In this document: in pieces, positions 18,239 through 46,511 of the stretch
Position numbering within the stretch: the stretch's first letter is position 1
How the letters are laid out: every line of letters begins with the position of its first letter
Source of the DNA: Alphaproteobacteria bacterium
GTDB lineage: Bacteria; Pseudomonadota; Alphaproteobacteria; MPNO01
Assembly (NCBI GenBank): GCA_965248835.1
Contig: CBDFLJ010000002.1
Coordinates: 832,001-896,000 of the forward strand
Length of the DNA stretch: 64,000 nucleotides
Direction: 5' to 3'
Translations under genes and position numbers: made by a program
The notes under the pieces: generated by a model
What the model saw: only the letters and a program-made list of their open reading frames with translations
What the model was told of the DNA's origin: nothing
Databases searched by the model: none

Positions 18239-18318
18239 CAGGTTTTCCCCGGCATTTCCCATGTGACGCGAGGACGGTTGCCGGTCTTGCGCACCGGGGC
18301 ACCCACCTGCCGCGCCCG
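18042..18318 (+). repeat. Direct repeat copy 1: 3' end of MetE-like gene plus downstream sequence (~277 bp)
   Basis: Aligns by eye with 20132-20408. Confidence 0.9.
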
Positions 18319-18991
18319 ATCCAGGGGCCGCCTTCAGCGACAAGCCAAAAGTGAGAAATTTTGGGTCGCCAAAAATGGGAGATTTACTAGTCCCACGGAC
18401 ACTTTCCAACTCTCAGTTTCTTATTACAGTTGTGGAGTCTTGCGGCATCGAGCCAGCTTACGGTCGCTGTTGACTGGTGCTGACCATACGGCCCATTTAT
18501 GCCCCTACAAGTTGCGGAGATCGCGCACTCAGCGTTGCTAGTGGCGGTGGCGGTTTCATCCTTGCACGAATCGTCCGCGGAGCTGGCCTCGAACTGCTCA
18601 AGGCACGAATCGTCGTCGACGACGTCCGCCTCGTTGCAGAGATCGCCCAGATCTTTGCAGCAGTAAACCCCGTTGACCTGGGTGGCGGACTGTTCTGCCG
18701 TGTTGCCGGTGGTCAAATACACTATCGTATCCGCCAGTATCTCTTTGTCGATCTTTGCGACGACCTCCCCGTGGTCCGGGCACAGGTTTTGGATTTCGAC
18801 AGTTTGTCCGCTTGCAACCGTGCTTATCTTGACGCGTAGGCAATCCGCGCTCTGGTGATTGATTCTCTGGCCATGCCGCGCAGCCGGCATGGGCCTGACC
18901 GGCAAGCAGCGCCGCCAATGCGAGCGCGAACACGGCCGAGAGCGCGTGGGCTTTATTCCAGGTCATTTTCGGACCTTTCCGTTGCGCGCCG
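18306..18991. repeat. Tandem gene cassette copy 1 (~686 bp)
   Basis: Homologous to 19116-19801 including near-identical non-coding flanks. Confidence 0.92.
18387..18966 (-). pseudogene. Secreted Cys-rich protein, paralog 1 (net +1 frameshift just after the signal peptide)
   Basis: Same signal peptide as 19198-19776; 580 bp vs 579 bp; indel at ~18870-18882; mature part is an open frame. Confidence 0.8.
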
Positions 18992-19115
18992 ATGCGCCGT
19001 TCGTGGGGCCTCATTGCCCTGATGGTGCGTATCGCGCTGCGCTCGAATGTCGGCTTTACGCCGCCTGATTGCGCCCTTCTCCCCGGTCGGCCTGACGTGA
19101 TCGGCACATAACGTC

Positions 19116-19801
19116 CCTGCCGCGACCGATCCAGGGGGCCGCCTTCAGCGACAAGCCAAAAGTGAGAAATTTTGGGTCGCCAAAAATGGGAGATTTACTA
19201 GTCCCACGGACACTTTCCAACTCTCAGTTTCTTATTACAGTTGTGGAGTCTTGCGGCATCGAGCCAGCTTACGGTCGCTGTTGACTGGTCCTGACTATAC
19301 GACCCATGCATGTCCCTACAAGTTGCGGAGATCGCGCACTCACCGTTGCTAGTGGCGGTGGTGATTTCATCCTTGCACGAATCGGCCGCGGTGCTGCCCT
19401 CGAACTGGTCAAGGCACGAATCGTCGTGGACGATGTCCGACACGTTGCAGAGATCGCCCAGAAGTGTGCAGCAGTAAACCCCGTTGATCTGGGTGGCGGA
19501 GCGTTCTACCGTGCTGCCGTTGGTCAAATACACTGCCAGATTCACCTGTATCTTTCTGTCGATCCTTGCGACGACCCACCCGAGGTCCGGGCACAGGTTT
19601 TGGACTTCGACAGTTTGTCCGCTTGCAGCCGTGCTTATCTGGACGCGTAGGCAATCCGCGCTCTGGTGATTGATTTTCTGGCTGCCGCTGCAGCCGGCAT
19701 GGGCCTGACCGGCAAGCAGCGCCGCCAATGCGAGCGCGAACACGGCCGAGAGCGCGTGGGCTTTATTCCAGGTCATTTTCGGACCTTTCCGTTGCGCGCC
19801 G
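19116..19801. repeat. Tandem gene cassette copy 2
   Basis: Homologous to 18306-18991. Confidence 0.92.
19198..19776 (-). CDS. Secreted 12-Cys protein, paralog 2; C-terminal half weakly cyanovirin-N (CVNH)-like
   Basis: 192 aa; Sec signal peptide ending AHA; 12 Cys; F..S..SC.D....ISATCR..GSY....LHNCN..L pattern. Confidence 0.8.
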   Translation of the reverse strand: MTWNKAHALSAVFALALAALLAGQAHAGCSGSQKINHQSADCLRVQISTAASGQTVEVQNLCPDLGWVVARIDRKIQVNLAVYLTNGSTVERSATQINGVYCCTLLGDLCNVSDIVHDDSCLDQFEGSTAADSCKDEITTATSNGECAISATCRDMHGSYSQDQSTATVSWLDAARLHNCNKKLRVGKCPWD

Positions 19802-20131
19802 GGGCATCATTGTGCCACCGGCAGGACAGCGTACTCGTCACCTGGCGCCAGAATTATCCGGCAGCGTTGCTGCGCCGTCAATGTCAATTCGTGCCTTGAA
19901 CGGTTCAAGGGCAGCGACGCGGGTGGTTCATGCCGCGATCCAGCCGCCGGCGTCGATGCCATCTATCGGTGCAAGGTCACCGCTTCGTGTGAAAACGGGA
20001 ATGGCGGCCGTCGAAAGGCGAGCGCGACCGTGGCTGGCGCGACGTCAACGATCTCCGCAACTGTGCGGGCCATCTGGAAGTCGGAGCGTGCGACCCTCAG
20101 CCGGATCCAAAGTAGCATTGTCGATAACGAG

Positions 20132-20408
20132 AGCGCGGCGCGCTCGAAACCAGGGACGAGATCATGCGGCGCGTCGATGAGGCGGCGAAGTTCGCCGGCA
20201 TCGACCAGCTCTGCCTGTCCGGCCAGTGCGGCTTCGCCTCGAGCGAGAAAGGCAACACCTCGAGCGAGGACGAGCAGTGGGCCAAGCTCGCCCGCATCGT
20301 CGAAGTGGCCGACGAGGTCTGGTCCTAACACGTTTTCCTCGGCGTTTCCCAGGTGACACGAGGACGGTTGCCCGTCTCCCGCACCGGGGCACCGACCTGC
20401 CGCGCCCG
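20132..20408 (+). repeat. Direct repeat copy 2: orphan 3' fragment of the MetE-like gene
   Basis: Encodes ALETRDEIMRRVDEAAKF..QCGFASSE..EVWS*, then the same downstream sequence as 18239-18318. Confidence 0.9.
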
Positions 20409-20646
20409 GCGTCCCGAACTGGCCTTTCGCGGCGGCAAACCCGACCGCCGCCCCCGTGCCTTCCGAAGCGATGGCCGGGGCCTTTTCCGTTTCAGGACAG
20501 CCACCTGCTGGCGGAGGGCAAGGATTTCTGTATGAAGCGCTGCGCGGCCAAGGACGGTTTCGCGGAAGACGGAGATGAGGACATTGATGATTTTGTGCTT
20601 GCCGGAAAAGGTATCCGGTGGTGATGCGAAATTCCAAGGTTTCTAA

Positions 20647-21588
20647 GAGCCCTTCCGGAAAGTTCTTGAATCGGAAGAATCGTTTGTGATTCTGTGCTGG
20701 GCATCCGGTTTACAGGAGGAAGCCCGATGTGGACTGCGGAACACCGCCGCGCGGCGGAGCGTCGCGGACTTCGCTATCCGAGTGATCTGACCGACGCCGA
20801 GTGGGCGCTGATCGCGCCAATGATCCCGCCTGCCAAGCGCGGCGGGCGCAAGCGCTCAGTCGACGTGCGCGAGGTTCTGAACGGCATCTTCACCGTGCTG
20901 TCCACGGGCTGCCAGTGGAATGCACTGCCCAAGGATCTGCCGCCGAAGTCGACGGTGTACGACTATTTCGATCTATGGGAGTGGGATGGCACGCTGGAGC
21001 GGATCCATCATGAACTCTACGTCGCGGTGCGCGATGAGGAAGGACGCGAAGCCAGCCCGTCGGCCGCGGTCATCGACAGCCAGAGCGCCAAGGCGGCGCA
21101 AAAAGGGGGGCGTCGATCGACGATCAAGGCTTCGATGCGGGCAAGAAGGTCACCGGTCGCAAGCGGCACATCATGGTCGACACGCTCGGCCTGATGCTGG
21201 GCATCGTGGTGCATTCCGGCGACGTTCAGGATCGCGACGGTGCCCACGAGCTCTTGCGCCGCACCCGGCGACGGTTCCCATTCATCGAGGTGATCTACGC
21301 CGACGGCGGCTATCAGGGACCGAAGATGGCCGCGACTGTCGCCAAGACCGGGGGGTGGCGGCTCGAGATCGTCAAGCGCAACGACGTGCCCCGCTTCGAG
21401 GTGCTGCCAAAGCGTTGGATTGTCGAACGCACCTTCGCCTGGATCAGCCGCAACAGGCGCCTCGCTCGCGACTTCGAACGTCACGTTCGATCCGTCGTCG
21501 CCTTCATCCGACTCGCCATGATCCGCATCATGCTGCGCAGACTCGCCGCAACCCACTCACCATAGATTCAAACTTTCCGGATCGGCTC
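20647..21588 (+). mobile_element. IS5-family (IS1031-type) insertion sequence, copy 1
   Basis: IRs gagcccttccggaaagtt / aactttccggatcggctc; 942 bp; near-identical to 42325-43268. Confidence 0.92.
20727..21565 (+). CDS. IS5 transposase split into two ORFs at an A5G6 slippery run (~21100-21110)
   Basis: YPSDLTDAEW, TGCQW, IDSQS, then KRHIMVDTLG, ADGGY, RWIVERTFAW. Confidence 0.88.
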
Positions 21589-21717
21589 TTACAGAACGAC
21601 CGATCTGATGTTCGCAGTGCGGCTGAAACGTTAGTTCCTGGAATCAGGAAGTGGGAGGCCCAGGAACGACAGCACGAGCGGTCCGAGGACCAGCAACGCG
21701 AGCAGCGATTCGAGTGA
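21589..21717 (+). pseudogene. Orphan C-terminus of an unknown gene cut by IS5
   Basis: ..IRKWEAQERQHERSEDQQREQRFE* begins exactly at the IS end. Confidence 0.4.
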
Positions 21718-24717: not shown

Positions 24718-25140
24718 CTATTTCGTCTGGTGCACGCTTGGACAGATCCTCACACGCTCCGGGGTGAAGGGGACTGTGCGCAGGCGCTTTCCGCTGGCAT
24801 CGAAGACGGCGTTGGCGATGGCGGCTGCGGCGGGCATGGTCGCGATCTCGCCGGCAACCGACGGCGGCTCATCGAGCCTCTGGATGAGCTCGACACGGAT
24901 ATCCGGGACCTCCGTGAAACGCAGGACGGAATAGTCGGCCCAATCGAGCGTCGTGATCCGGGCGGTGTCGTAATGGATCTCCTCCTTCAGCGATCGGCTG
25001 ACCGCGTGAACCACATTGCCCTGCACCTGGTTCAGGACGCCGTCCGGGTTGACCATCAGGCCGCAATCCTGGGCGACGAAGACCTTCGGGACCGTGACGA
25101 GACCCGTCTCCCGGTCGACCGCGACGTCGGCGACCATGGC
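24718..25140 (-). pseudogene. Molybdopterin-binding large subunit (xanthine dehydrogenase/isoquinoline oxidoreductase family), C-terminal fragment
   Basis: DCGLMVNPDGVLNQVQG, GE....AAIANAVFDASGKRLRTVPF; only ~140 aa. Confidence 0.82.
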
Positions 25141-25389
25141 GATGAAGCTCGGGCTCAGGCTGGATCGCGGATCACCACCGGGGTGACCTCCCGGCGGCGC
25201 GCTCTGCTTCGCACTGCGCGCGGCCGGCTTTCTTCGGCGTATCCACGCCGCGCAACCGGACGCTCAGCCGCGCCAGCTCGGACGGCAGATCGGCCGACGC
25301 GTCGACCGCGACTGTGTCGCCGTCTACCACACGCACCACGGGCCAGCACTAGTCGGCGCCGTGAGCCGGAGCCGGTCGGAAGGCGACCA

Positions 25390-25810: not shown

Positions 25811-26341
25811 CTAGCGATCGACGCCGAGCAGGATGTCCTTGGCGCCGGCGACTGCCGTCCGGGCCCGTGCCGCGAGGTGTTCCGTGGTGGCGCTGCTGAT
25901 CGGATGGTCGATGACGACGAAGGGATAGTCCTGCGCCCCCAGCACCCGGCTCATCAGCTCGGCGGCGGAGACGAATTTCGCGGTCATGATGGCCGCGGAC
26001 GGCAGGCCGAGGCGCTCGCCGATGATCGCGTCATGCAAACTGCACGACGAGCAGCTGCCTCAATCGCCGACACCGGCGACCAGCGCGTTCCAGCGCTGGG
26101 CGTCGTCGAGCAGGCCGGGTTCGGCCGGCGCGCTGTAGTTGGACTTGGTCAGCCGGGCCACTTCGGCGACGCCGTGATTGTCGACCAGCTCGCGCGCGAA
26201 GGCATCGAAGAAGGCGATGGTGCCCCGCTTGCCGTTCGACAGCAGCGCGATCCGCGCGCCCTCGAGCGTGCCCAGGCGCGCCGCCGCCGTGAAGGCGGCG
26301 CTGCTCCCCTCGTGGGTCGGATCGAGTATTTCCAGAGCCAT
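25811..26341 (-). CDS. UGSC-family selenoprotein (in-frame UGA = Sec)
   Basis: ORFs 26060-26341 and 25811-26038 are in one frame, joined as GVGD-[TGA]-GSCSSCSLHD; SECIS-like hairpin follows. Confidence 0.85.
26029..26049 (-). promoter_or_regulatory. Putative bacterial SECIS hairpin
   Basis: mRNA cgucgugca-guu-ugcaugacg, stem starts 10 nt after the UGA, G first in the loop. Confidence 0.6.
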
Positions 26342-26374
26342 CGACGCTCTCTCCCTGCCTGCTCCCTGCCTGGC

Positions 26375-27630: not shown

Positions 27631-28416
27631 TCACAGGATCGTCCTGCCGCCGTCGACCATCAGCGTCGCCCCGGTCACGAAGGACGCCTCGTCGGAGGCC
27701 AGCCACAGGACCGGGTAGGCGACTTCGCGCGGCTCGGCCCAGCGCTTGAGGAGGTTGTCGGTCCGGCCTTCCCGGCGCATGTCCTCCACCGTCCGCCCGC
27801 TCGCCTTCCGGCGCCCGATGGTGAACGGCGTGAGCGTCGCGCTCACCCCGACCGCGTTGGCGCGGATCCCGTTTTCGGCCTCCTCGCAGGCCAGGCTGCG
27901 CGTCAGCGCCAGCAGCCCCGCCTTGGTCGCGTCATAGGCGGACCAGTCGGCCCGCCCGCTGATGCCGTAGACCGAGGAGACGTTGATCACGCTCCCACGG
28001 CCGGAGCGCCGCAGCGCCGGCACGGCCGCCTTGGAGAAATTGACCGCGCCGAGGAGGTTGACCGACACCACCTCCTTCCAGGTGTCGAGATCCACCGTCT
28101 CGATCGATGCGATGTCGCGGATCGCCGCGTTGTTGACCAGCACGTCCAGCCCGCCGAAGCGCTCGGTCGCGCAGGCGACGGCGGCCGCAGCGTCGGCGGG
28201 GCTGGCGACGTCCCCGACGATCGTCGCGAGCTGCGCATCCGCGACCCGGTTCGCGATCCTGGCCGCGACCGCCTCCAGCGCAGCTTGGTTGCGGTCGACC
28301 AGAACGACGCGGCCGCCTTCCTCGCAGAACAGCGCGCCGATGGCCTCCCCCAGGCCGCCGCCGCCGCCCGTGACGACCGCCGCCTTCCCCGCCATGCGTC
28401 CGCTCATCTGCACCAC
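27631..28416 (-). CDS. SDR family oxidoreductase
   Basis: TGGGGGLG, NNAA, YDATK, VTGATLMVDGG. Confidence 0.93.
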   Translation of the reverse strand: MVQMSGRMAGKAAVVTGGGGGLGEAIGALFCEEGGRVVLVDRNQAALEAVAARIANRVADAQLATIVGDVASPADAAAAVACATERFGGLDVLVNNAAIRDIASIETVDLDTWKEVVSVNLLGAVNFSKAAVPALRRSGRGSVINVSSVYGISGRADWSAYDATKAGLLALTRSLACEEAENGIRANAVGVSATLTPFTIGRRKASGRTVEDMRREGRTDNLLKRWAEPREVAYPVLWLASDEASFVTGATLMVDGGRTIL

Positions 28417-28437
28417 CTGCGTCGATTCAAACCCCGG

Positions 28438-29227
28438 GGTAGTGTCTTAGTTTGAAATCCGCCACTTGCGAAAGGTCTTGGGCCGGTTCGGCTTTGCGGC
28501 CCGCGCGTCGATCAGGTCAACGATCTATTCCATGTCCCGCAGCGTATCGGAAACGCCTGCCGCCATCGCCGGCGACATCCGCCGGCTCGTGTGCATCCGG
28601 CAGAAATTGTAGTGCACGAAGTAGAGCGACAGCATATGAAGGAGGTTCTCGATCTTCTTTGAGAACGCATTGGTCAGCCGGGTGAAGCGGTGCATCCCCA
28701 TCCGCATGGTCAGGTTGTGCTGCTCGACATGGGACGTGCTGACCGCGGCACGCTCGGGTTTTCCGGTGATCCGACGCTTACGGGCTCCGACGCACGCCGG
28801 GGGCTGTAGCGAGCTTCGGTCTCCGGCGCGTCGCCGTAGATCTTGATGAGCTGGGCATCGCCCACATCGCCGCCGAAAGCGCCCTCAACGGCTTCCAGAT
28901 ACGCCTTGTGACCGTCCGTGGTCAGTTGAACCCGGTTCGCCAGCCGACCGCGCAGATCGTCCATGAAGGCAAGCGCATACTCGCTGCGCGCGCCCTGCCA
29001 CCCTTCGCACCTAGCGCCTTCGCGGCGGGGTCCTTGCCGTCGTCCTCGGACTCTTCCTCCTCCTCGCCGACAGCGATCCGCATGACCTTGACGGCGTTGC
29101 CGACCACGTCGGCCGGGCGCTTCTGGCCTCGCGGTCCCTTCGGCATGGCTCCTCCGATGCTTCCCGCTAAGCATACGGGATGCCGGGCCGGGCCGCGACA
29201 GGGCGGATTTCAATGTGATGCACTACC
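28438..29227 (-). mobile_element. Degenerate IS1-family element (deleted, frameshifted transposase plus small passenger ORF)
   Basis: QLTTDGHKAYLEAVEGAFG, RMGMHRFTRLTNAFSKK..YNFCR..PAMAAG; small ORF MPKGPRGQKRPADV; inner end tttcaatgtgatgcactacc. Confidence 0.8.
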
Positions 29228-29239
29228 CCGGGGGGGGGG

Positions 29240-29600
29240 TTAGACGGCCGCCGCGATCTCTCCAAGGAAGTCCCGCAGCCATTTGTTGGCGGCATCGTTT
29301 TCGCGGTTGCGATATGCCATTGGAGATGTTCGGACACGACGGGGAAGTCGATGGCGGGCGCGATGACCCCGAGCGCCAGGCGACCCGCGTAGAGCCGGGC
29401 CAGCCGGCCCGGCAAGGTGGCGATGTTGAACGTGCCGGCGACGAACAGGGGCAGCAGGGTAAAGCTCGGCAATATCGCCGTTACGGTCCGCGCGCAGCCC
29501 AGCTCGTTCAGACAGGCGGCATCGAATGCGAGCGTTCGGTCGCCGTCGATGCTCGGCGACAGCACGACGATGTGACAGAGTCCAGGTTTGTGCCCCATCG
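29240..29600 (-). pseudogene. LysR substrate-binding domain fragment
   Basis: PSFTLLPLFVAGT..IATLPGRLA..QWH; no HTH. Confidence 0.65.
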
Positions 29601-29656
29601 AAATCAGGGCCGTTCCGACAGCCTCCGTGGAGGAAGAAAAGGACCGATCTACCCGC

Positions 29657-29715
29657 TCAACGAAATTGTTGACAACAAATCTGTTGAATATGGTATGCTT
29701 CAACGAATTTGTTGA
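29657..29715 (+). promoter_or_regulatory. Sigma70-like promoter overlapped by three TCAAC-N6-GTTGA palindromes
   Basis: TTGACA 29669-29674, TG-g-TATGCT 29691-29699; palindromes at 29657-29672, 29672-29687, 29700-29715. Confidence 0.65.
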
Positions 29716-29732
29716 AAGCGGGTGCGCAAGCA

Positions 29733-30956
29733 ATGCAATCATCCACCGGCCGTTGGGTAAGCGGCGACAACTTCTTCGACCGCGAGTCCGAGCTGCGGCT
29801 GCTGGAATCCCGGGTCTGCGGCGGCAACCATGTGCTGTTGAGCGGGCAACGGCGCATGGGCAAGACCAGCATCGCCCGAGAGCTGGGTCGGCGGCTCGAA
29901 TCCAAGGGATGGACCTCGCTCTTCATCGATGTCGAGGGAGCGACCTGCCCCGAGGATGTGATCGCCGAAATAGCTGAGGCGGTGCACCCGATTCGCTCGA
30001 TCTCGTCACGTTTTGCCCGCACCATGAAGCGTCTGGTCGACGAAAACATCGAAGAAATCAGTGCGTTCGAATTTCGAGTCAGAGTCCGCGCCGGATTGAG
30101 TGGACGCTGGCAGCGTTATGGAACAGAGCTAATCGGCAGTTGCGCCGATCATGACAAGCGGGTCCTGCTCGTCATCGACGAGTTGCCCATATTTCTCCTG
30201 CGAATGCTCCGTGATGATGAAGGCGCAGGACGGGTCGATGAGTTTCTGAGCTGGCTCCGCGGCGTGCTTCAAGGTCTTGGCAGTCGATCTACGGTCCTCA
30301 TCGTATCGGGCAGCATCGGGCTTGCACCCCTTGTGCAGAGGCTCGGGATACCCGACCGCATCAATCACCTCTATCCCTTTCGTTTAGGGCCTTGGAGCCG
30401 TCAAGCCAGCGTCGAGTGCTTCGAACGTCTCGCGGAGAGCCTCGGGCTCCCGATCGAGGACGGGGTGTCAGATGCGGTGTACGAAGCGCTCGGCATCGGC
30501 ATTCCTCACCACGTGCAATCCTACTTCGCACGTCTACAGGATTTCGCCGTGATGACGGGTCGCGATCGCGTAACGGTAGCGGATGTCGCCGAGGTGTATC
30601 GAACGGAGCTTCTCGGGCCTTCCGGCCAAAGCGATCTCGCGCACTATGAGACCCGCCTCCAGAACGCCTTGGACGAACAAAGCCACCGAATCGCCCTGGA
30701 AGTCCTCGCCGAGGCAGCCACTCAAGGCGTGTTCACCTACCGCGCGCGCCACTGCCTCGAACGCCGGTACTCTCCTGTGGCTGAGGACGCGGTCCGTCAT
30801 ATCGGGGAAGTGCTTGATGTCCTGACGCACGACGGCTATCTCGAAGCTGGCGACGACGGCCACCGTATCCCGTTCCGATTGCTGAAGGACTGGTGGTCGG
30901 CGCGCTTCCGAGACCACCACATCCCCCTCGAAAGCCGTGTCTCGGACAAGGACTGA
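29733..30956 (+). CDS. P-loop ATPase (archaeal-ATPase/STAND-like)
   Basis: FFDRESEL, Walker A GQRRMGKTS, Walker B LLVIDE, SGSIG. Confidence 0.85.
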   Translation: MQSSTGRWVSGDNFFDRESELRLLESRVCGGNHVLLSGQRRMGKTSIARELGRRLESKGWTSLFIDVEGATCPEDVIAEIAEAVHPIRSISSRFARTMKRLVDENIEEISAFEFRVRVRAGLSGRWQRYGTELIGSCADHDKRVLLVIDELPIFLLRMLRDDEGAGRVDEFLSWLRGVLQGLGSRSTVLIVSGSIGLAPLVQRLGIPDRINHLYPFRLGPWSRQASVECFERLAESLGLPIEDGVSDAVYEALGIGIPHHVQSYFARLQDFAVMTGRDRVTVADVAEVYRTELLGPSGQSDLAHYETRLQNALDEQSHRIALEVLAEAATQGVFTYRARHCLERRYSPVAEDAVRHIGEVLDVLTHDGYLEAGDDGHRIPFRLLKDWWSARFRDHHIPLESRVSDKD

Positions 30957-30967
30957 AGGCTCCCCCC

Positions 30968-33900
30968 ATGAACGAATTGCTCGAACAGCCGCGACAGATT
31001 CGAAAGTTCAATCCCGGGACGTTCCAGTCCGATGTGGAAGTGATCAGCCAATTCGTGGTCAGGAACCGCGAGCTTGGCGTCGTGCTGGATGTTCTCCGCG
31101 GGAACGCCGGTTCACCGTCCTGCCAACACGTTCTACTCGTCGGACCCCGCGGTCGGGGAAAGACCATGCTGCTGGCCCGCATTGCTGCCGAGCTGCGCAC
31201 CGACGGCGACCTCTCCGATCAGCTCTTGCCGATCCGGTTCACGGAAGAGAGCCATGAGATATTCAACCTTGGCGACTTCTGGCTTGAGTCGCTGTTCTAC
31301 CTCGCCCGAGAGCGTGGGGTGCGCGACCCGGATCTCGCGCGCGAACTGCGAGATGTGCACGCCGCCTTGGCGGCCGAGCGGCACGGCAGAGAACTCGAGG
31401 AGCGTGCTCGCGCGGCTGTGCTGGAGATAGCCGATCGGCTCGGCAAGCGGCTCGTGCTGATGGTCGAAAACCTGCAGGCGCTGTGTCGAGACGTGGACGA
31501 CGACTTCGGCTGGAAGCTTCGCGGAGTGTTGCAGTCGGAACCCCAAATCATTCTGCTTGCCACCGCCACCAGTCGTTTTCGGGAACTGGAGGACGCGGAA
31601 CATGCGTTCTTCGAGCTGTTTCGGATCGTGCGTCTGGAGCCGCTGGATACCGGCGAGTGCCGCCGCCTGTGGCAGATGGTGACGGGTGACGATGTTAGGC
31701 GACGTGAAATCAGGCCGCTGCAGATCTTGACCGGAGGCGACCCTCGCCTCCTGGTCATCATCGGCGGGTTTGCACAGCACCGATCCCTGGGTCAGTTGAT
31801 GGAAGACCTGGTAAGGCTGATCGACGACCACACCGAGTATTTTCGTGCTCACCTCGAAGGCTTCGCAAAGACCGAACGCCGAGTCTATCTCGCGTTGATC
31901 GACCTCTGGCAACCGTCAACCACCGGAGAAATCGCGGCTCGGGCGCGTCTGGACGTTCGAATCGTATCGACCCTGCTCGGAAGGCTCGTCGAGCGGGGCG
32001 CAGTCGTCGTGGAAGGAAACGGCAAAAAGCGTGTCTATGTGGCCGCACAACGTCTCTACAGCATCTACTACAAGCTGCGGCGTGAACGCGACGAGGCAGC
32101 CGTCGTCCGCAACCTGATTCGCTTCATGGCGGTGTTCTACACCGATGATGAACTGACCGAGATGGCAGGACAGCTGCGTCGGGAGGCCGTGCAGTCGCCA
32201 ATCTTCCGTGAGGGAATTGAGCAGGCGATAGCGGAGACGCCGCAAATCAGCCGTATCTTCGCCCACGAGGAATGGCAGGCCATCAGTTCGGCATCCGAGC
32301 GAGCCATGGCTATAGGCGACAAAGGCGCCAAGCTGAATTTCCGCGAGACTATAGGCGAAGCCGACGAGACGGGAGACCGGCAAGTCACCGAGTTCTTGGA
32401 CCGAGGGTTGGCTTCCCGGAGAGAGAGCTCACCGCACGCGCCGGAACCGGCCACGGCGCCGGTTCTATGGCGAAGAGCACTTGCGCATAGGAACCGTGGA
32501 GAGCACGAAGCCGAAATTGCAACCTATGACCAAATCGTCGCACTCATTGGAGACAGCGGCGTCCCCGAGCTTCAGGTGCTGGTCGCCGAGGCGTTGGTCA
32601 ACAAGGGAGTCACGCAAGGACAGCTCGGCGACGCCCAGGCGGAGATGGCCGCCTACGACGCGGTGGCCGTCCGATTTGGAGACAGCGACGTCCCCGAGCT
32701 TCAGGTGCAGGTCGCCGCGGCGTTGGTCAACAAGGGAGCCACGCAAGAAGAGCTCGGCGACGTTCAGGCGGCGATGGCCGCCTACGACGCGGTGGCCGCC
32801 CGATTTGGAGACAGCGACGCCCCCGAGATTCAGGTGCTGGTCGCCAAGGCGTTGTCAACAAGGGAGCCACGCAAGGACAGCTCGGCGACGCCCAGGCGGA
32901 GATGGCCGCCTACGACGCGGTGGCCGTCCGATTTGGAGACAGCGACGTCCCCGAGCTTCAGGTGCTGGTCGCCGAGGCGTTGGTCACGCAAGGACAGCTC
33001 GGCAAGGGACGACGCGGTCGATTTGGAGACGCAAGGAGCTTCAAGCTCGGCGACGCTCCAGGCGGCGATGGCCACCTACGACGCGGTGGCCGCCCGATTT
33101 GGAGACAGCGACGTCCCCGAGCTTCAGGTGAAGTCGCCAAGGCGTTGTTCAACAAGGGAGTCACGCAAGGACAGCTCGGCGACGCCCAGGCGGAGATGGC
33201 CACCTACGGCGCGGTGGCCGCCCGATTTGGAGACAGCGATGTCCCCGAGCTTCAGGTGCAGGTCGCCGCGCGTTGGTCAACAAGGGAGTCACGCAAGGAC
33301 AGCTCGGCGACGCCCAGGCGGCGATGGCCACTTGCGACGCGGTGGCCGCCCGATTTGGAGACAGCGATGTCCCCGAGCTTCAGGTGGAAGTCGCCAAGGC
33401 GTTGTTCAACAAGGGAGTCACGCAAAGAGAGCTCCTCGGCGACGCCCATGCGGCGATGGCCGCCTTCGACGCGGTGGCCGCCCGATTTGGAGACAGCGAT
33501 GTCCCCGAGCTTCAGGTGCAGGTCGCCAAGGCGTTGTTCAACAAGGGAGTCACGCAAAGAGAGCTCCTCGGCGACGGCGATGGCCACCTACGACGCGGTG
33601 GCCGAGCGATTTGGAGACAGCGATGTCCCCGAGCTTCAGGTGGAAGTCGCCAAGGCGTTGTTCAACAAGGGAGTCACGCAAAGAGAGCTCGGCGACGCCC
33701 AGGCGGCGATGGCCGCCTTCGACGCGGTGGCCGCCCGATTTGGAGACAGCGATGTCCCTGAGCTTCAGGTGGAGGTCGCCAAGGCGTTGTTCAACAAGGG
33801 AGTCACGCAAAGAGAGCTCCTCGGCGACGCCCAGGCGGAGATGGCCACCTACGACGCGGTGGCCGAGCGATTTGGAGACAGCGATGTCCCCGAGCTTCAG

Positions 33901-34926
33901 GCGCAGGTCGCCAAGGCGTTGTTCAACAAGGGAGTCACGCAAGGACAGCTCGGCGACGCCCATGCGGCGATGGCCGCCTTCGACGCGGTGGCCGCCCGAT
34001 TTGGAGACAGCGACGTCCCCGAGCTTCAGGTGGAGGTCGCCAAGGCGTTGTTCAACAAGGGAGTCACGCAAAGAGAGCTCCTCGGCGACGCCCAGGCGGA
34101 GATGGCCACCTACGACGCGGTGGCCGAGCGATTTGGAGACAGCGATGTCCCCGAGCTTCAGGCGCAGGTCGCCAAGGCGTTGTTCAACAAGGGAGTCACG
34201 CAAGGACAGCTCGGCGACGCCCATGCGGCGATGGCCGCCTTCGACGCGGTGGCCGCCCGATTTGGAGACAGCGACGTCCCCGAGCTTCAGGTGCAGGTCG
34301 CCGCGGCGTTGGTCGGCAAGGGAGTCACGCAAGGACAGCTTGGCGACGCCCATGCGGCGATGGCCGCCTTCGACGCGGTGGCCGCCCGATTTAGAGACAG
34401 CGATGTCCTTCAGCTTCAGATGCTGGTGGCCAACGCGTTGGTCAACAAGGCTGAAGCGGAAATCCGGCTCGGCCGCACGGAAGAAGCTCTACATACTTGT
34501 GAGCAAGTTGAACGAAGAGCGGACGTCTTGGCCGGAATCGAGAAAGGTGCGTTGGAACGACGAGCGCGGTGGGTTAGGACCAGGGCTCTCCTCTTGCTGG
34601 AACAACACACAGAGGCCATGGATGTGTTCCGCTCGGTTTACGCTGTGTTCGTCCCTGGCGAAGACACCATGGTGAGTGAGATGTTGGAGCAGGTCCCCAA
34701 CCTGATCGCAGCCGGGGCATCCGAGCGCGACTTGGTCGGCGTCCTGTCCAGTGAAAGTGAAAAGACCGATGCGCTGATGCCGTTGGTGGTGGCGCTGCGG
34801 CAGCGTGCTGGCGAGGTGGTCCGGGCACCGGTTGAAGTGCTGGAGATCGCGGCGGATATCCGCAGGGAAATCGAAACGAAGTTGGGCTCCGGCGACGACG
34901 CCTCTCCTGGCGCATCGTCCGCGTGA
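30968..34926 (+). CDS. STAND-like ATPase + winged HTH + TPR-like repeat array (frameshifted within the array as assembled)
   Basis: GPRGRGKTM, LMVENL, TGGDPR, wHTH STTGEIAARARLDVRIVSTLLGRL; repeats switch frame several times before the unique C-terminus. Confidence 0.8.
32520..34450 (+). repeat. Tandem 129/132-bp coding repeat (~15 copies plus one degenerate), 43/44-aa TPR-like unit
   Basis: Unit MAAYDAVAARFGDSDVPELQVQVAKALFNKGVTQGQLGDAQAA; gatttggagacagc recurs about every 129 bp. Confidence 0.93.
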
Positions 34927-35039
34927 CACGTCTGCGGGGTCAGGGCAACCGCGTTCGCCGTGCCGAACGCGATAGAGGCGTTCGATCTCGACTCACAAAT
35001 GATGGTCGTGAGCGCCGTTCAGGCGCAAGCGCGGACTGA

Positions 35040-35225
35040 CGGGCCGGCGGCAGGCCGGTCATGTTCTGAAGATGCGCCTTGCCGATCAGTGCGGTGCGGT
35101 AGCCGGCATCGCGCAGCAGATGAACGAAGGTGGTCGAATTCAGCGGCAGCGGCAGGCCGTTATGGCGCACCCTGTCGAGCGAGGGCATGCGCCCGATCAT
35201 CAGGCTCGCGCGGTTGGACGGACCG
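35040..35225 (-). pseudogene. Sulfatase N-terminal-region fragment
   Basis: NRASLMIGRMPS..VRHNG..TFVHLLRDAGYRTALIGKAHL. Confidence 0.75.
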
Positions 35226-35342
35226 TCCGCCGCTCGGAAGATTTCAAACTGAGACACTACCAAACCCCGGCGTCGCGTTGCCCATGCCGGCGGCGCGATG
35301 CTACCGTCCGCCGGTCCGGAGCGGAAACCCAGGGATCGGCTT

Positions 35343-36989
35343 ATGCCTTGCGCGCCCATCGTGATCGTCGGCGGGGGCCCCGTCGGCATGGTGCTGGCGA
35401 TGAACCTCGCCGTGTTCGGCGTGCGCACGGTCATCGTCAACATCGAGCCGAGCTCGCGCTGGCACCCCAAGGGCAACACCCACAACGCCCGGACGATGGA
35501 GCATTACCGCCGGCTCGGCATCGCCCGTGCCGTCCGCCGGGTGGGGCTGCCGGCCGATCACCCGACGGATGTCGGGTATTTCACCACGCTCGACGGCTGG
35601 GAGATCGCCCGCCTGCCGATGCCGTCCGAGGCGCGCAAGATCGCCGCGCGCGACGCCGCCGCGGCGACCGATCAGGTCCCGGAGCCTCTGTTCCGGGCCA
35701 ACCAGATGTATGTCGAAGCGGAGCTCTTCCGCCATATCCAGACCATCGAGGCGATCGTTCCCCGCTATGGATGGCGCTGCGTCGAGATCGCCGAGACCGG
35801 CGACGGATTCGAGGTGGCGATCGAGGAGGCGGACTCCGGACGGGTCGAGCGGTTGGACTGCTCCTATGTCGTCGGCTGCGACGGCGGGCGCAGCTTCGTC
35901 AGGCGCTGGCTCGGCATCTCCTATTCCGGCGACCGGCCGCGCGCCCAGCTTTACGGCAGCGGTGCGACGGTCGCCACGCACCTGCGCGCACCGGCGCTCT
36001 ACGAGCGCGGCATCCTCCAGCGGCACTGCTGGCAGTACTGGACGGTCAATTCCGAGGTGCGGGCCAATCTGGTGACGCTCGACGGCGAAGGCGATTTCCT
36101 GTTCAGCACCCGCATCGGCAGCATCGACGAGCCGCCCGATCCGGCCTATATCGCTTCCCGGTTCCGCCGCAGCGTCGGCCAGGACGTCCCGTTCGAATTC
36201 ATCGGCCACTGGCCCTGGACGGCCGGCCACGCGCTGGTCGCGGACTCCTTCGGCCGCGGCCGCGTCTGGCTCGCCGGCGACGCGGTGCACCTGTTCACGC
36301 CGACCGGCGGGTTCGGCATGAACACCGGCATCGACGATGCCGCCAATCTGGGATGGAAGCTCGCGGCGGCGGTGCAGGGCTGGGGCGGCCCCGACCTGCT
36401 GGAGAGCTACGCGGTCGAGCGCCGGGCGATCGCCTTGCGCAACACCGGCATGGCCAAGCGGTTCTCGCTCAGGCTCGCCGACGTGCCGGCGCCGCCCGAG
36501 ATCACCGAGGATTCGACGGTAGGCGAGACCGCGCGCGCCGAAGCGGCCGCCATTCTCTCGACCCTGGGGGAGGAGTTCGCCTCGATCGGCACCCAGCTCG
36601 GCGCGCGCTACGACGGCTCGCCGATCATCGCCGCCGACGGGACCGCGCCGCCGCCCGACGATCACGTCGTCTACACCCCGAGCGCGTGCCCCGGCGGCCG
36701 CGCGCCGCATCTGTTCCTGCCCGACCGCAGCTCGCTGTTCGATCGTTTCGGGCCGGGCTTCACGCTGTTGCGGATCGGCGGCAGGCTCGATGCGCGGCCC
36801 TTCGCGGCCGCGGCCGAAGCGCGCGGCATCCCGCTTGCGCTCCGCGATGTCGAGGCGCCCGAGGCGCGCGAGCTCTACGGCGCCGATCTCGCGCTGATCC
36901 GTCCGGACCAGCATGTCGCCTGGCGCGGCGACCGGGCCCCCGACGACGTCGGCGCGCTGCTCGCCCGCGTCACCGGACACCGGTCCTAG
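35343..36989 (+). CDS. FAD-dependent aromatic monooxygenase (PheA/TfdB type)
   Basis: GGGPVG, GCDG, GDAVH..PTGGFGMNTGIDDA, IRPDQHVAWR. Confidence 0.92.
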   Translation: MPCAPIVIVGGGPVGMVLAMNLAVFGVRTVIVNIEPSSRWHPKGNTHNARTMEHYRRLGIARAVRRVGLPADHPTDVGYFTTLDGWEIARLPMPSEARKIAARDAAAATDQVPEPLFRANQMYVEAELFRHIQTIEAIVPRYGWRCVEIAETGDGFEVAIEEADSGRVERLDCSYVVGCDGGRSFVRRWLGISYSGDRPRAQLYGSGATVATHLRAPALYERGILQRHCWQYWTVNSEVRANLVTLDGEGDFLFSTRIGSIDEPPDPAYIASRFRRSVGQDVPFEFIGHWPWTAGHALVADSFGRGRVWLAGDAVHLFTPTGGFGMNTGIDDAANLGWKLAAAVQGWGGPDLLESYAVERRAIALRNTGMAKRFSLRLADVPAPPEITEDSTVGETARAEAAAILSTLGEEFASIGTQLGARYDGSPIIAADGTAPPPDDHVVYTPSACPGGRAPHLFLPDRSSLFDRFGPGFTLLRIGGRLDARPFAAAAEARGIPLALRDVEAPEARELYGADLALIRPDQHVAWRGDRAPDDVGALLARVTGHRS

Positions 36990-41534: not shown

Positions 41535-41554
41535 CCGGACAGGGCTCGTGACCC

Positions 41555-41990
41555 TGCAATCGGGCGCGGCACGGCCAAGCAGTGGATCAAGGAAGGCAAG
41601 AAGGCCGTCAAGTGGACACGCCTGTCGTGCCGCAAGTTCCGTCACAACGCCGTCCGGCTCCAACTCCACGCGCTCGCCTGCAATCGCAGCAACTTCATGC
41701 GGACACGCGCGCTGTCCGATTCAGTGGAGCAGTGGTCACGGACCACACTGCGCGAAAAGCTCGTAAAGATCGGCGCGAAGATCGTCCGCCACGGTCGCTA
41801 CATCGTCTTCCGGATGGCCGAGGGCGCTATCCCTCGTGACCTGTTCGCCGACATCCTCCGCCGGATCGATCGGTACAGCGCGACGCCCCTCCCGACATGA
41901 TCATGGTCGCAGAACCCATCGGACTTGCCCTTCGCGCGATTTCGAGCCACGCTCGACTTGGCTGAAGGGTGCCACATGGGAAATCCCGGA
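41555..41990 (+). pseudogene. IS1380 3' remnant with right end
   Basis: QWIKEGKKAVKWTRLSC..LREKLVKIGAKIVRHGRY; end catgggaaatcccgg resembles the end at 11597-11613. Confidence 0.82.
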
Positions 41991-42073: not shown

Positions 42074-44208
42074 ATGAAATCGCTACTCAAGACATATGCG
42101 ATACTGCCGGCCGCCACCGTTCTGGGGCTGGCCATCGGGCTCGCAACGGCTTCGGCGGAAACATACAGGATCGGTCTTGCCGTTCCCGTAACCGGCACCG
42201 GGGCCGATGCCGGCAAACGCGAAGCGATCGGCGCCCATGCCGCCGTCACTGCGATCAACAAAGCCGGAGGAATCGGCGGAAGCATGATCGAATTGTTCTT
42301 CGCGGACACCGGCAGCAATCCTCAGAGCCGATCCGGAAAGTTTGAATCTATGGTGAGTGTGTTGCGGCGAGTCTGCGCAGCATGATGCGGATCATGGCGA
42401 GTCGGATGAAGGCGACGACGGATCGAACGTGACGTTCGAAGTCGCGAGCGAGGCGCCTGTTGCGGCTGATCCAGGCGAAGGTGCGTTCGACAATCCAACG
42501 CTTTGGCAGCACCTCGAAGCGGGGCACGTCGTTGCGCTTGACGATCTCGAGCCGCCACCCCCCGGTCTTGGCGACAGTCGCGGCCATCTTCGGTCCCTGA
42601 TAGCCGCCGTCGGCGTAGATCACCTCGATGAATGGGAACCGTCGCCGGGTGCGGCGCAAGAGCTCGTGGGCACCGTCGCGATCCTGAACGTCGCCGGAAT
42701 GCACCACGATGCCCAGCATCAGGCCGAGCGTGTCGACCATGATGTGCCGCTTGCGACCGGTGACCTTCTTGCCCGCATCGAAGCCTTGATCGTCGATCGA
42801 CGCCCCCCTTTTTGCGCCGCCTTGGCGCTCTGGCTGTCGATGACCGCGGCCGACGGGCTGGCTTCGCGTCCTTCCTCATCGCGCACCGCGACGTAGAGTT
42901 CATGATGGATCCGCTCCAGCGTGCCATCCCACTCCCATAGATCGAAATAGTCGTACACCGTCGACTTCGGCGGCAGATCCTTGGGCAGTGCATTCCACTG
43001 GCAGCCCGTGGACAGCACGGTGAAGATGCCGTTCAGAACCTCGCGCACGTCGACTGAGCGCTTGCGCCCGCCGCGCTTGGCAGAGGCGGGATCATTGGCG
43101 CGATCAGCGCCCACTCGGCGTCGGTCAGATCACTCGGATAGCGAAGTCCGCGACGCTCCGCCGCGCGGCGGTGTTCCGCAGTCCACATCGGGCTTCCTCC
43201 TGTAAACCGGATGCCCAGCACAGAATCACAAACGATTCTTCCGATTCAAGAACTTTCCGGAAGGGCTCTCAGGACGCGGTAAACGCGGTACGCAAACTTG
43301 TAGGCGATGACAACGTGCTGGCCATCGTGGGACCGCATTATTCCGGCGTGGCCGAGGCGACCTTTCCGCTGGGAAATCGACTCGGAATCGTTCAGATCGC
43401 CGTGGCGTCGTCGAAGCCGGGTGTCGCGGCGGCGAACCGGCCCTACGCTTTCCGTAACACGCTTACGGAAGACAAGGTGGCGGCGGCCGTGGTGGCCAAG
43501 TTCAAAGCTCGCTACAACCCGAAGAACGTCGCAATAATCACCGATATCAAGGATGCGGTATCGCGCGCGATCGGCACCGCCGTGTTGCCTGCGGCACTCA
43601 AGGCGGAGGGCATCAAGATCCTGAACCAGGGGAATCCGGTCACGTTCCAAACCAGCGACGCTCAGTTCACGGCCCAGATCACCTCGCTGAAAGCCATGAA
43701 TCCGGATGCCGTCGGCCTCGGCGCGCTTGGTCCGGATGCGCTGAACATAATCACGGAAGCACGCCGGCAGGGCATGACACAGCCGTTCTTCGGGACCGGA
43801 CCGCTCATGGAAGGCAATATTCCCGAAAAGGGCGGTGCCACCGTTGCCGGAACCGTCGCCGGCACGATCTGGGACTATTCGCTTGCCAATGAAGGCAGCA
43901 GGCAATTCATCGCAGACTATGAAGCGGTTTCCGAGACCATCTATCCCGGCGAATTTACCAAGCGTCCCGACTACTATGCCGTGAACGCCTATGACGCCGT
44001 TTACATGATAAAGGCTGCCATCGAGTCCGGTGCCATTTCTGCCGAAGGCTCCGATCTGAAAGGTGCCAGAAACAAGATCAGAGACTACATGGCGGCGCTC
44101 AAGGACTTCAACGGCGTTGCCAGCAGCGGCTTCAACGATGTCGGCGATGGTGTGAAAAATGTCGTCGTCTTCGAAATCAAGGATGGCCACTGGGCGCCGA
44201 TGCAATAA
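42074..44208 (+). pseudogene. Branched-chain amino acid ABC substrate-binding protein (LivK-like) interrupted by IS5
   Basis: Reads ..DTGSNPQ | IS | DAVNAVRKL.., in frame once the IS and one TCA are removed. Confidence 0.9.
42325..43268 (-). mobile_element. IS5-family insertion sequence, copy 2 (2-bp insertion in ORF1)
   Basis: Same IRs as copy 1; TCA target duplication at 42322-42324 / 43269-43271; 944 bp. Confidence 0.93.
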
Positions 44209-44893
44209 TGTCCTTGCCGTGATCTTCGCCGGACGGTCTGTCGGATGATCGCGCAGCAGCTCGTCAACGGCCTGATGCTGGGCAGCACGTACGCGTTGAT
44301 TGCGCTCGGTCTCACTTTGGTGCTGGGGGTTTTCAACAAGCTCAATATCGCCCACGGCGACGTGTTCATGTTCGGCGCGTTTGCCGGACTGGCTGCCGCG
44401 GCGGCAGGAGCGTCGTTCGCCGTCGCCATTCTTGCCGGAATGGCGGCGGCGGCGATCGTCAACGTCCTGATTGAACGGTTTTGTTTTCATCCCCTGAGGA
44501 AATCACACTTCCTGGCCCCCATGCTCAGCACGATCGCGTTCGGCATCATGCTCCAGAACGTGGCGACGCAGATCTGGGGGTCTGATCCCTCGCGTTTTCC
44601 AAACGTCGAAGCCACGACACAATTCCATTTCGGAGGTGTGCTCCTCTCTTCCGTCCAGGTCGTCGTCCTCGTCGTCTCGATCGCCCTGATGGCCGTGATC
44701 GACCTGGTGATCCACCACACCCGGATCGGGCGAGCATTGCGCGCCACGGCATTTGACCGGGAAATCGCCGGCATGCTCGGCATCAATACCGGCAAGGTCA
44801 TCTTCTTTACATTCCTGACCGCCGGTGCCCTGGCCGGTATCGCCGGGGTGCTGACGGCCAATGTCTACTCGCAGATCACTCCGCATATCGGAA

Positions 44894-46285
44894 GAGCTAT
44901 GGCCAGAAGTTGGTGACGGGGTGAAGGGTTAAGGCGGCGTATCGTGGGGGTGATCGAGCCTCCACCTCTCCAACGAAGGAGTGATACGCCGTGAGCGACA
45001 ATAACGTTTTGAAGCTTTCCCAGCCATCGACGTTTTCCGATCCGTTGACCGAGGTGCTGCGCAGCGGCGCCCGGTCCCTGCTGGCGCGGGCGGTCGAGGC
45101 GGAGGTTGCCGCGTTCCTTGATGGCCACTCCGAGGCGCGCACCGAAGAAGGCCGCCGACGGCTGGTGCGCCACGGCCACCTGCCCGAACGCGAGATCATG
45201 ACCGGCATCGGCCCGGTTGCGGTTCGCGCGCCACGCGTTCGCGACCGCACGGGCCTGGGCGCCGACCGCATCCGGTTCAGCTCCGCGCTCCTGCCGCCTT
45301 ATGCGCGGCGCTCGAAGAGCCTCGAAGTCCTGATCCCCGTCCTCTACCTCAAGGGCATCTCCACGGGCGACTTCGCCGAGGCGCTGGCGGCCTTGCTCGG
45401 GCCGGACGCCGGCGGCTTGTCGGCCTCGACCGTGGCGCGGCTCACCGAGGTTTGGGCGGACGAGCACGCGCACTGGCTGAAGCGGGATCTGTCGGCCAGG
45501 CACTATGTCTACTTCTGGGCCGACGGCATCCATGTGCAGGCCCGGCTCGAGGACGATGCGCAATGCCTGCTGGTCATCATCGGCGCGACGCCGGAGGGTA
45601 AGAAGGAACTCGTAGGCCTCGTCGACGGGGTGCGCGAGAGCGCCCAATCGTGGCGCGAGCTGCTACTTGACCTCAAACGGCGCGGGCTCGCGGTCGCGCC
45701 CGAACTCGCCATCGCCGACGGCGCGCTCGGCTTCTGGAAGGCGATCGAGGAAGTGTGGCCCCGGACCCGCAGCCAGCGCTGTTGGGTGCACAAGACCGCC
45801 AACATGCTCAACAAGCTGCCCAAGAGCCAGCACTCGAAGGCAAAGCGTGCTCTCCAGGAGATCTGGATGGCCGAGACCAGGAACGACGCAGACAGCGCCT
45901 TCGACGCCTTCATCGAGACCTACGCCGTCAAGTACGACAAGGCGGCCGCATGCCTGGTCAAGGATCGCGAGACGATGCTGGCGTTCTACGACTTTCCCGC
46001 CGAGCATTGGAAGCATCTGCGCACCACCAACCCCATCGAAAGCACATTCGCCACCGTGCGACACCGTACCGTGCGATCCAAGGGATGCCTCTCCAACAAG
46101 ACGGCGCTCGCCATGGTCTTCAAACTCGCCCAGGCGGCACAGAACAGTTGGCGCCGCCTCGACGGACACAACCAGTTGCCCAAGCTGATCGTCGGCGTAA
46201 AGTTCATCGACGGAATCGAAGCCGTCAGGCAACAACCTCAAGCCGCCGCCTGACCCAAGCCGTCACCAAGATTCGGCTATAGCTC
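44894..46285 (+). mobile_element. IS256-family insertion sequence
   Basis: IRs gagctatggccagaagttggtgacgg / ccgtcaccaagattcggctatagctc; 9-bp TSD atatcggaa. Confidence 0.95.
44991..46253 (+). CDS. IS256-family transposase
   Basis: YFWADG, IADGALGFW, QRCWVHK, RTTNPIES. Confidence 0.95.
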   Translation: MSDNNVLKLSQPSTFSDPLTEVLRSGARSLLARAVEAEVAAFLDGHSEARTEEGRRRLVRHGHLPEREIMTGIGPVAVRAPRVRDRTGLGADRIRFSSALLPPYARRSKSLEVLIPVLYLKGISTGDFAEALAALLGPDAGGLSASTVARLTEVWADEHAHWLKRDLSARHYVYFWADGIHVQARLEDDAQCLLVIIGATPEGKKELVGLVDGVRESAQSWRELLLDLKRRGLAVAPELAIADGALGFWKAIEEVWPRTRSQRCWVHKTANMLNKLPKSQHSKAKRALQEIWMAETRNDADSAFDAFIETYAVKYDKAAACLVKDRETMLAFYDFPAEHWKHLRTTNPIESTFATVRHRTVRSKGCLSNKTALAMVFKLAQAAQNSWRRLDGHNQLPKLIVGVKFIDGIEAVRQQPQAAA

Positions 46286-46511
46286 ATATCGGAATCCGGC
46301 AAGGTATGATCGGAATGGTCGCAATGGTCATTGGCGGGCTCGGCAATTTGCGGGGGGCCATGCTCGGGGGCATGGCGGTCGGCGTGGTCGAAATTCTCAA
46401 CGACGCATATCTGGGTGCCGCCTACCGCGATCTTGTGGTGTTTTCGCTCTTCTTTGCCTTTCTCATCGTCAAACCGGACGGGCTGATCCCGCAGGACAGG
46501 GCCATACGCGC

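Follow-up and report, generated by a model that had tools for sequence, protein, structure and literature searches.

A mobile two-gene ATPase module with a putative autoregulatory operator and a repeat-bearing, NLR-like partner: a candidate conflict sensor, apparently decaying in one alphaproteobacterial genome

Avs and other bacterial proteins related to nucleotide-binding leucine-rich repeat receptors (NLRs) place a P-loop nucleotide-binding and oligomerization domain (NOD) before a sensor of tetratricopeptide repeat (TPR)-like units, and a 2026 survey of defence-associated signal transduction ATPases with numerous domains (STAND proteins), which distinguishes 589 clades, reports that most of their sensors are TPR-like helical repeats (10.64898/2026.01.04.697583). 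Fungal NLRs (HET-E/D and NWD, with TPR, ANK or WD repeats) are described in PMC4986451 as carrying repeats that are internally well conserved and polymorphic in number, with few selected positions on the binding face. Other families offer partial likenesses, namely the archaeal PF01637 ATPases (SSO1545, structure 2fna, and PAB2304, structure 2qen), the Orc1/Cdc6 proteins and the STAND regulators of the MalT/LAL, AfsR and GutR kind. Here we describe a two-gene locus that recalls parts of each. It consists of an ATPase gene (gene A), a second ATPase gene with a TPR-like array (gene B) and an operator-like array upstream of both, and it lies in an alphaproteobacterial genome (4.89 Mb in two contigs, 67% G+C; GenBank assembly GCA_965248835.1). 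The 64,000-nucleotide stretch that we analysed, positions 832,001 to 896,000 of contig CBDFLJ010000002.1, is called the window, and all coordinates count from its first letter (Table 1).

Gene B shares with Avs and related bacterial proteins the order of P-loop NOD and TPR-like sensor and a fold like that of Apaf-1 and plant NLRs, and the module is likewise patchy and horizontally spread. Unlike Avs, the module has no fused nuclease, protease, SIR2 or TIR effector and no PADLOC or NCBIfam defence match. It adds a linked second ATPase, obligatory in the ancestral form, and a conserved putative autoregulatory operator, and B carries tandem near-identical repeats instead of a unique sensor fold. 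With fungal NLRs, B has in common near-identical units, polymorphism in their number and few hypervariable positions on one helical face (PMC4986451); it differs in being bacterial, in its 43-aa units, in lacking an N-terminal HET-type or other effector and in standing in a two-gene operon with an Orc-like partner. Gene A has the AAA+ core, lid and winged-helix layout of the archaeal PF01637 and Orc1/Cdc6 proteins, and the repeated palindromes beside it recall origin boxes, but A is bacterial, falls under the PF01637 cut-off and is linked to B in the ancestral form, with no replication context seen. The module shares with MalT/LAL, AfsR and GutR an ATP-dependent switch, a sensor made of helical repeats and promoter-borne DNA sites, whereas it has no separate LuxR or SARP DNA-binding domain, its repeats are hypervariable and, in contrast to MalT/LAL, no regulon was seen, the operator standing at the module promoter only in the six genomes scanned apart from one extra site in genome G343. 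The searched literature on sponge symbionts, STAND/nSTAND NTPases, TPR proteins and conflict systems yielded no description of the A-B pair.

Two paired ATPases behind an operator-like array

A scan with gene A, taking one genome per species, gave 60 loci in other genomes, and a B homologue stood directly downstream of A in every one (NOD 58-96% and C-terminal domain 32-91% identical), which places the pairing far beyond chance. The gap from the A stop to the B start was -4 to +18 bp in most loci and is 11 bp in the window (30956 to the ATG at 30968). Among relatives, A was found in ten places and B accompanied it in all six that were examined, including a subfamily whose A is only 39-41% identical; searched from the B side, A lay upstream in all five places, in four genomes other than G000. 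All-against-all clustering of the open reading frames (ORFs) revealed no third conserved gene, no other cluster occurring in more than 13 of 61 loci. The first-pass annotation, made from the letters of the window, had described two P-loop ATPase genes 11 bp apart, the second with a winged helix and about 15 TPR-like units, had recognised no nuclease, TIR or protease effector, had left the pair without a named system and had set its co-occurrence elsewhere as a test beforehand. All of this holds, with the array counted at 14.5 units and the pair conserved and translationally coupled; the annotation's view of B as STAND- or NLR-like with a TPR sensor also agrees with the domain matches and model comparisons given below. 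Searches with Pfam, NCBIfam and PADLOC found no nuclease, TIR, protease or other effector domain in A or B, PADLOC returning only mad8 at E ~1e-3 and NCBIfam only DS8_antiphage (E 0.005, 14.7 bits against a cut-off of 790).

The gene A ORF spans 29709-30956, its ATG having been placed by alignment of homologues, and the protein contains a Walker A motif (GQRRMGKTS), a Walker B motif (LLVIDELP) and, as the homologue alignment indicates, G-x-G-I-P-H. Across phyla the protein is well conserved (mean column identity 74% in 32 sequences). Its Pfam matches (AAA_16, AAA_22 and ATPase_2) were mostly under cut-off, PF01637 (ATPase_2) reaching 24.6 bits against a gathering cut-off of 33.2, and a precomputed PF01637 match is present on some homologues. 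With an AlphaFold2 model (predicted local distance difference test, pLDDT, 88), Foldseek ranked 2fna and 2qen first and second (E 1e-10, template modelling score, TM, 0.56-0.69) and archaeal Orc/Cdc6 next, and a profile search of solved structures gave 2qen at E 1e-4. As modelled, gene A resembles archaeal AAA+ proteins (PF01637 and Orc/Cdc6) more than it does a typical STAND NTPase. The ESM Atlas returned only generic 'ATP-binding protein' clusters for A, and the scoring of 8,000 candidates gave at least 1,944 A-type proteins with E ≤ 0.001. Paralogy of A and B was considered and not supported, BLASTP between them detecting weak P-loop similarity only (E 0.037). A complex prediction for A with the B NOD gave no answer (score 0.00) and carries no weight either way.

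Gene B matched AAA_16, AAA_22, a TrmB-type winged helix (aa 298-360) and TPR_6, TPR_8 and TPR_1 in Pfam, and among DNA-binding families its winged helix was closest to TrmB (5e-6 to 2e-7), with further matches to MarR_2 and Penicillinase_R. Alignments showed an invariant Walker A (PRGRGKT) and a Walker B-like LVLMVENL in which E167 and N168 are invariant; this E-N pair, neither D-D nor D-E, suggests slow hydrolysis. A GxP motif in the helical domain is part of the STAND definition, and the helical domain of B contains such a motif in the near-invariant ILTGG-x-PRLL (GG-x-PRLL). An AlphaFold2 model of the repeat-less homologue from L015 (pLDDT 74, predicted template modelling score, pTM, 0.47) retrieved Apaf-1, 2fna, the NRC2/3/4 NLRs, CED-4, NLRC4 and Orc/Cdc6 in Foldseek (E 3e-6 to 3e-4). 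In this model the nucleotide-binding domain, helical domain and winged helix have the NOD architecture of STAND/NLR-like NTPases. The C-terminal domain, helical and about 110 aa long, is marked by the motif SD..KSDALxPLVVALRQ..GE.VRAP.EVLEVAADI and is kept in each of the 60 loci, those with repeat-less forms (L015 and L019) among them; profile scans and the ESM Atlas, for which its recognition was low, gave no family or look-alike. At least 2,642 B-type proteins were found at E ≤ 1e-10 among 8,000 candidates scored, and none of the best 120 has a source-given name.

Three CAAC-N6-GTTG palindromes occupy the 93 bp upstream of A. The first two abut and their junction, GTTGACAAC, contains the TTGACA -35 box, and the third comes after the TGnTATGCT element. 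A consensus promoter and terminator scan called no promoter. The palindrome arms are conserved among loci and the spacers vary. In 55 loci the 5' end of A is intact. Of these, 49 have GTTGWCAAC no more than 150 nt upstream of A, compared with a single occurrence in the remaining sequence of the loci, a background of 805,795 nt, and CAAC-N6-GTTG was present at least once in 40 and at least twice in 31; the distant A subfamily (39-41% identity) also has these sites. The double site is unique in the G000 genome, and in five further genomes it was found at the module only, plus one extra site in G343, with a reversed-pattern control giving 0. Its confinement to the module in the genomes scanned points to a putative autoregulatory site of the module itself, with no regulon. 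Winged-helix conservation across subfamilies, 0.57 in B against 0.50 for the B NOD (N-terminal 430 aa) and 0.40 in A against 0.46 for the whole of A, gives a weak hint that B rather than A would bind the operator. The extra G343 site is a perfect double site (G343:C1:5672040-5672068), about 196 kb from the L007 module in the same genome, and may mark another module copy.

Gene A was deleted, frameshifted or interrupted in 15 of the 60 loci, whereas B was disrupted in two (L037 and L049) and intact in 58, with two complete B genes in L016 and L027. In six Latescibacterota loci (L004, L011, L016, L026, L027 and L059) the order is A-B1-B2. B2 is 57-63% identical to B1, and in front of it stand one or more CAAC-N6-GTTG sites of its own and what is left of an A-B junction, but no A. 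These are tandem second modules that have lost A. Together, the 15 losses and the six operator-plus-B units without A indicate that operator and B form the durable core, A being dispensable or costly, and the imbalance between A and B losses is as expected of a costly partner prone to loss. The sensor/helper NTPase pair proposed in the first-pass annotation thus stands as a pair, whereas A looks dispensable and not like an obligatory helper, and its closer likeness to archaeal PF01637 and Orc/Cdc6 proteins speaks against the description of it as a solo STAND-like ATPase. Phage defence or host sensing, proposed there for the pair, is a candidate role, 7 of the 60 loci having a credible defence gene directly beside the module.

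Table 1. Features of the module in the window, with strand and, where given, the basis of the call
Feature	Position	Strand	Basis
Whole transferable module: operator/promoter, gene A, gene B and 124-bp tail	29640..35050	+	
Three CAAC-N6-GTTG palindromes, operator-like	29658-29671, 29673-29686, 29701-29714 (29658..29714)	+	
Putative promoter: TTGACA and TGnTATGCT	29669-29674 and 29691-29699	+	read by eye
Gene A: 407-aa AAA+ ATPase with lid and C-terminal winged helix, intact here	29733..30956	+	
Gene B: ATPase, winged helix, repeat array and C-terminal domain	30968..34926	+	
Gene B N-terminal NOD: P-loop NTPase, helical domain, winged helix (~31859-32047) and linker	30968..32257	+	
Gene B array: 14.5 units of 129 bp (43-aa, TPR-like)	32547..34450	+	Tandem Repeats Finder, repeat families, TPR matches, unit alignment
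Five frame-breaking lesions in gene B	32855..33575	+	three-frame translation, unit alignment
Gene B conserved helical C-terminal domain and stop	34561..34926	+	

Repeat dynamics and the broken gene B copy

Intact B homologues carry between 0 and 27 repeat units, and mean unit identity is 0.51-0.85 (maximum 1.00) inside one protein, compared with 0.56 between proteins. Along the unit, entropy is highest at positions 26, 29, 32, 36, 37, 39 and 40, a stripe that follows the second helix and the loop after it, and at these variable positions the ratio of nonsynonymous to synonymous polymorphism (pN/pS) exceeded 1 in two of five arrays (1.46 in L012 and 20.9 in L003), suggesting diversifying selection there. 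The pattern matches that of the fungal NLR repeats presented in PMC4986451.

In the window the array is interrupted by single-nucleotide deletions near 32855, 33131 and 33269, a scrambled extra piece of 37 nt at ~32985-33060 and an 8-nt deletion near 33573. The coding frame shifts accordingly from 2 to 1 (~32855), is garbled over 32985-33060, and passes from 2 to 1 (~33131), from 1 to 0 (~33269) and from 0 to 1 (~33573), so that the 1260-aa ORF at 30893-34675 represents real protein only to ~32870. The absence of stop codons from the correct frames, together with seven undamaged units at the end of the array, indicates that the damage is recent. Short-read contigs from the one sample containing the stretch show a single indel variant, an extra A behind 33270, at minority depth (11/29.7, 3.6/12.2 and 5.8/30.4), and list no indel at the other four lesions in a repeat region that they bridge poorly.

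This copy of B is probably a real pseudogene. A rather unlikely alternative, which concerns this copy only, is that the organism has an unbroken gene and that errors of assembly or consensus produced the breaks within 1.9 kb of near-identical repeats. It has points in its favour: every lesion lies inside the repeat array, where assemblers fail, the correct frames are free of stop codons, the minority contig depth at 33270 has a frame-restoring extra base and B is intact in 58 of the 60 other loci. The lesions are, however, of mixed kinds, including the 8-nt deletion and the 37-nt scrambled piece, the single-nucleotide deletions fall outside long homopolymers, and the minority variant may stem from another unit or strain. 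At 33270 most of the depth matches the window, and the other four lesions have no listed indel, a weak argument given how poorly the repeats are bridged, and the enclosing 20-kb segment bounded by insertion sequences (ISs) contains several further gene fragments. For this genome, the module copy is probably dead.

Spread across phyla and genomic setting

Gene A was present in 8 of 41 relatives (G000 counted) and absent from both same-genus genomes, and B was present in 5 of 301 genomes of the class (G000 counted). Patchily distributed, the module occurs in different phyla at 65-97% identity. Carriers at 65-79% protein identity span Latescibacterota, Acidobacteriota, Gamma- and Alphaproteobacteria, Nitrospinota, Binatota, Spirochaetota and Thermodesulfobacteriota, and a carrier in Gemmatimonadota (Longimicrobiales) is 53% identical. 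In a maximum-likelihood tree of 46 intact A proteins, from which carriers with a broken A were left out, lineages cluster locally and phyla interleave on short branches, with 4 changes needed for Pseudomonadota, 3 for Acidobacteriota and 3 for Latescibacterota. The tree fits transfer across phyla followed by vertical descent. At least two named carriers are metagenome-assembled genomes (MAGs) of sponge symbionts, from Aplysina aerophoba (APA_bin) and Ircinia ramosa (SB0661_bin), the assignment resting on the naming convention given in PMC11706023. Two sequencing runs, X5 ('sponge metagenome') and X6, contain only 0.06 of the words, and we draw no habitat claim from them; none of the runs listed as containing the stretch is of RNA.

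The limits of the module emerge from locus L003, in another alphaproteobacterial MAG, which has only 29640-35050 in common with the window (96% and 90% nucleotide identity) between unrelated flanks, and from a metagenome contig that departs from the window exactly at 35050. G+C content at third codon positions is ~0.69-0.70 in A and B compared with 0.85-0.93 in adjacent genes. No terminal repeats were seen at the module ends, and an Rfam scan over 28000-35600 gave one match, at chance level.

Around the module, two inverted IS4/IS5-family copies with DUF4096 and DDE_Tnp_1 ORFs lie at 20643-21589 and 42324-43272 (949 nt each, 99-100% identical) and enclose a 20.7-kb segment holding the module, aromatic-catabolism genes and several gene fragments, a composite-transposon-like layout. 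Truncated genes there include one reduced to the tail of a molybdopterin-binding domain (24718-25263), the first half of a UGSC-family protein (26060-26374) and a DDE_Tnp_1_4 transposase of which only the final 105 residues are left (41535-41900), and these are signs of local decay around the module. Adjoining one IS copy is a periplasmic binding-protein gene (43024-44208), followed by a branched-chain amino-acid ABC permease gene (BPD_transp_2, 44209-47363) that is apparently interrupted by a Mutator-family transposase gene (44985-46253). Elsewhere in the window, duplications within 18042-20408 (18324-18623 and 19135-19434, 95%; 18880-18991 and 19690-19801, 100%; 18042-18318 and 20132-20408, 94%) span two ORFs of ~200 aa without a Pfam match, and direct repeats within 4399-4714 and 15481-16289, ~11.1-11.6 kb apart, are 98% identical (47 and 275 nt). 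In two gammaproteobacterial MAGs (L012 and L013) the genes flanking the module encode an AAA_14/DUF4143 ATPase (PADLOC candidate PDC-S01) and, on the opposite strand, a separate TPR-only protein, the flanking genes lying at L012:5312-6472, L012:13753-15165 and L013:11566-12204.

A candidate conflict sensor and its alternatives

The self-contained and apparently self-repressed operon, its patchy spread across phyla, a STAND-like switch with fast-diversifying repeats and the frequent loss of the partner point to a conflict- or immune-type sensor rather than a housekeeping regulator. We infer from these sequence features that the module may be a self-repressed, horizontally mobile, NLR-like conflict sensor that is decaying in this genome, and give this reading a probability of about 0.45, a value held down by the missing effector and the weak island signal. 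B would act as an NLR-like (STAND-type) switch whose recognition surface is altered by gain and loss of repeats and by substitutions at about seven positions per unit, and A would be an Orc/Cdc6-like AAA+ winged-helix ATPase co-translated with it. The operon's own putative sigma-70-type promoter appears to be buried in the three palindromes, to which one winged-helix protein, more likely B, probably binds, keeping the operon repressed. A foreign ligand (from a phage, a plasmid or another non-self protein) that settled on the TPR array would then change the nucleotide state and oligomerisation of B, and the output would pass through DNA binding or derepression and through the partner ATPase A, without a fused enzymatic effector.

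Several results weigh against this interpretation. No effector was found in A, B or any conserved neighbour, so that a mechanism of killing or arrest is missing, and none of the best 120 of the 2,642 B relatives has an effector domain. A is not needed for whatever B does, as its frequent loss and the six operator-plus-B units indicate, and B itself is broken in this genome. The B model is only moderately confident, with low TM to NLRs (0.19-0.28), and pN/pS at the variable positions, which were picked from the same data, was below 1 in three of the five arrays. In IMG/VR viral contigs, 17 pattern matches were obtained with the A alignment and none was confirmed; among PLSDB plasmids, a DNA search found no match and a protein search a single relative of 24% identity, in Segatella. 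A census of one gene on each side of the 60 loci (120 neighbours), made without a background control, showed that the nearest neighbours are mostly housekeeping or metabolic genes, such as those for PdxA, guanylate kinase, a ComF-like protein, UbiD and GH113. Pfam marked about 18 of the 120 as mobilome- or defence-like, and PADLOC gave ~7 credible defence genes (in 7 of 60 loci), mostly methylases with one HipA-like, one UvrD/NERD-like and one PDC-S01 gene. The defence-island signal around the module is at most weak.

An alternative is a regulator that has nothing to do with defence. B would then be a switch like MalT, AfsR or Orc that senses a ligand, depends on ATP and binds DNA, and that, with A, answers a host or environmental cue, for instance in sponge symbiosis, its variable TPR array binding host- or community-derived molecules and not phage parts. 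The resemblance of the B winged helix to TrmB, MarR_2 and Penicillinase_R, the conserved palindromes at the promoter, the mostly housekeeping neighbours, the lack of an effector domain and the sponge-symbiont MAGs among the named carriers (PMC11706023) would all suit such a role. We consider it unlikely, since the operator is confined to the module in the six genomes scanned and leaves no regulon to control, and control of itself alone combined with spread across phyla is hard to explain on these terms. Hypervariable, internally conserved arrays are, moreover, typical of non-self recognition and not of metabolite sensing (PMC4986451), and the sponge link is documented in two records only.

The likeness to archaeal Orc1/Cdc6 proteins, clear for A and less so for B, and extending to the Orc heterodimer on origin DNA (2qby), raises a different idea, that of a selfish maintenance or replication module in which two Orc/Cdc6-like proteins act on an A/T-rich, iteron-like array as the initiator and origin, or the addiction unit, of a small mobile element inserting between host genes. 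Palindromes with A/T-rich spacers do adjoin the genes, the boundaries are discrete and the distribution across phyla is patchy. Yet no integrase, transposase or relaxase is conserved alongside and no terminal repeats were seen, the palindromes overlap the -35 box as an operator would, and a long hypervariable TPR array is out of place in an initiator. The module was also not found on viral contigs and is represented on plasmids only by the distant Segatella relative, and decay of A alone and of B alone are both tolerated, against a dependence of the toxin-antitoxin type. This explanation is very unlikely.

Extended further, the conflict-sensor reading would place the module in a new class of effector-less bacterial NLRs, which shuffle near-identical repeats to create their recognition repertoire, as fungal allorecognition NLRs do, signal through DNA and an Orc-like partner and circulate across phyla in dense host-associated communities (for example, sponge microbiomes), where they might police phages, plasmids or even neighbouring cells; so broad a claim is speculative and rather doubtful at present. 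If the conflict-sensor reading is true, several thousand A- and B-type proteins that have so far gone unnamed would gain a frame, and the module would represent a compact, portable NLR-like unit with a defined operator, an often-shed partner ATPase and an array that diversifies like those of fungal non-self receptors. It would then offer a bacterial model for recognition diversity by repeat shuffling and for NLR signalling without a fused effector, and would be a case of gene exchange between phyla within symbiont communities of the sponge type.

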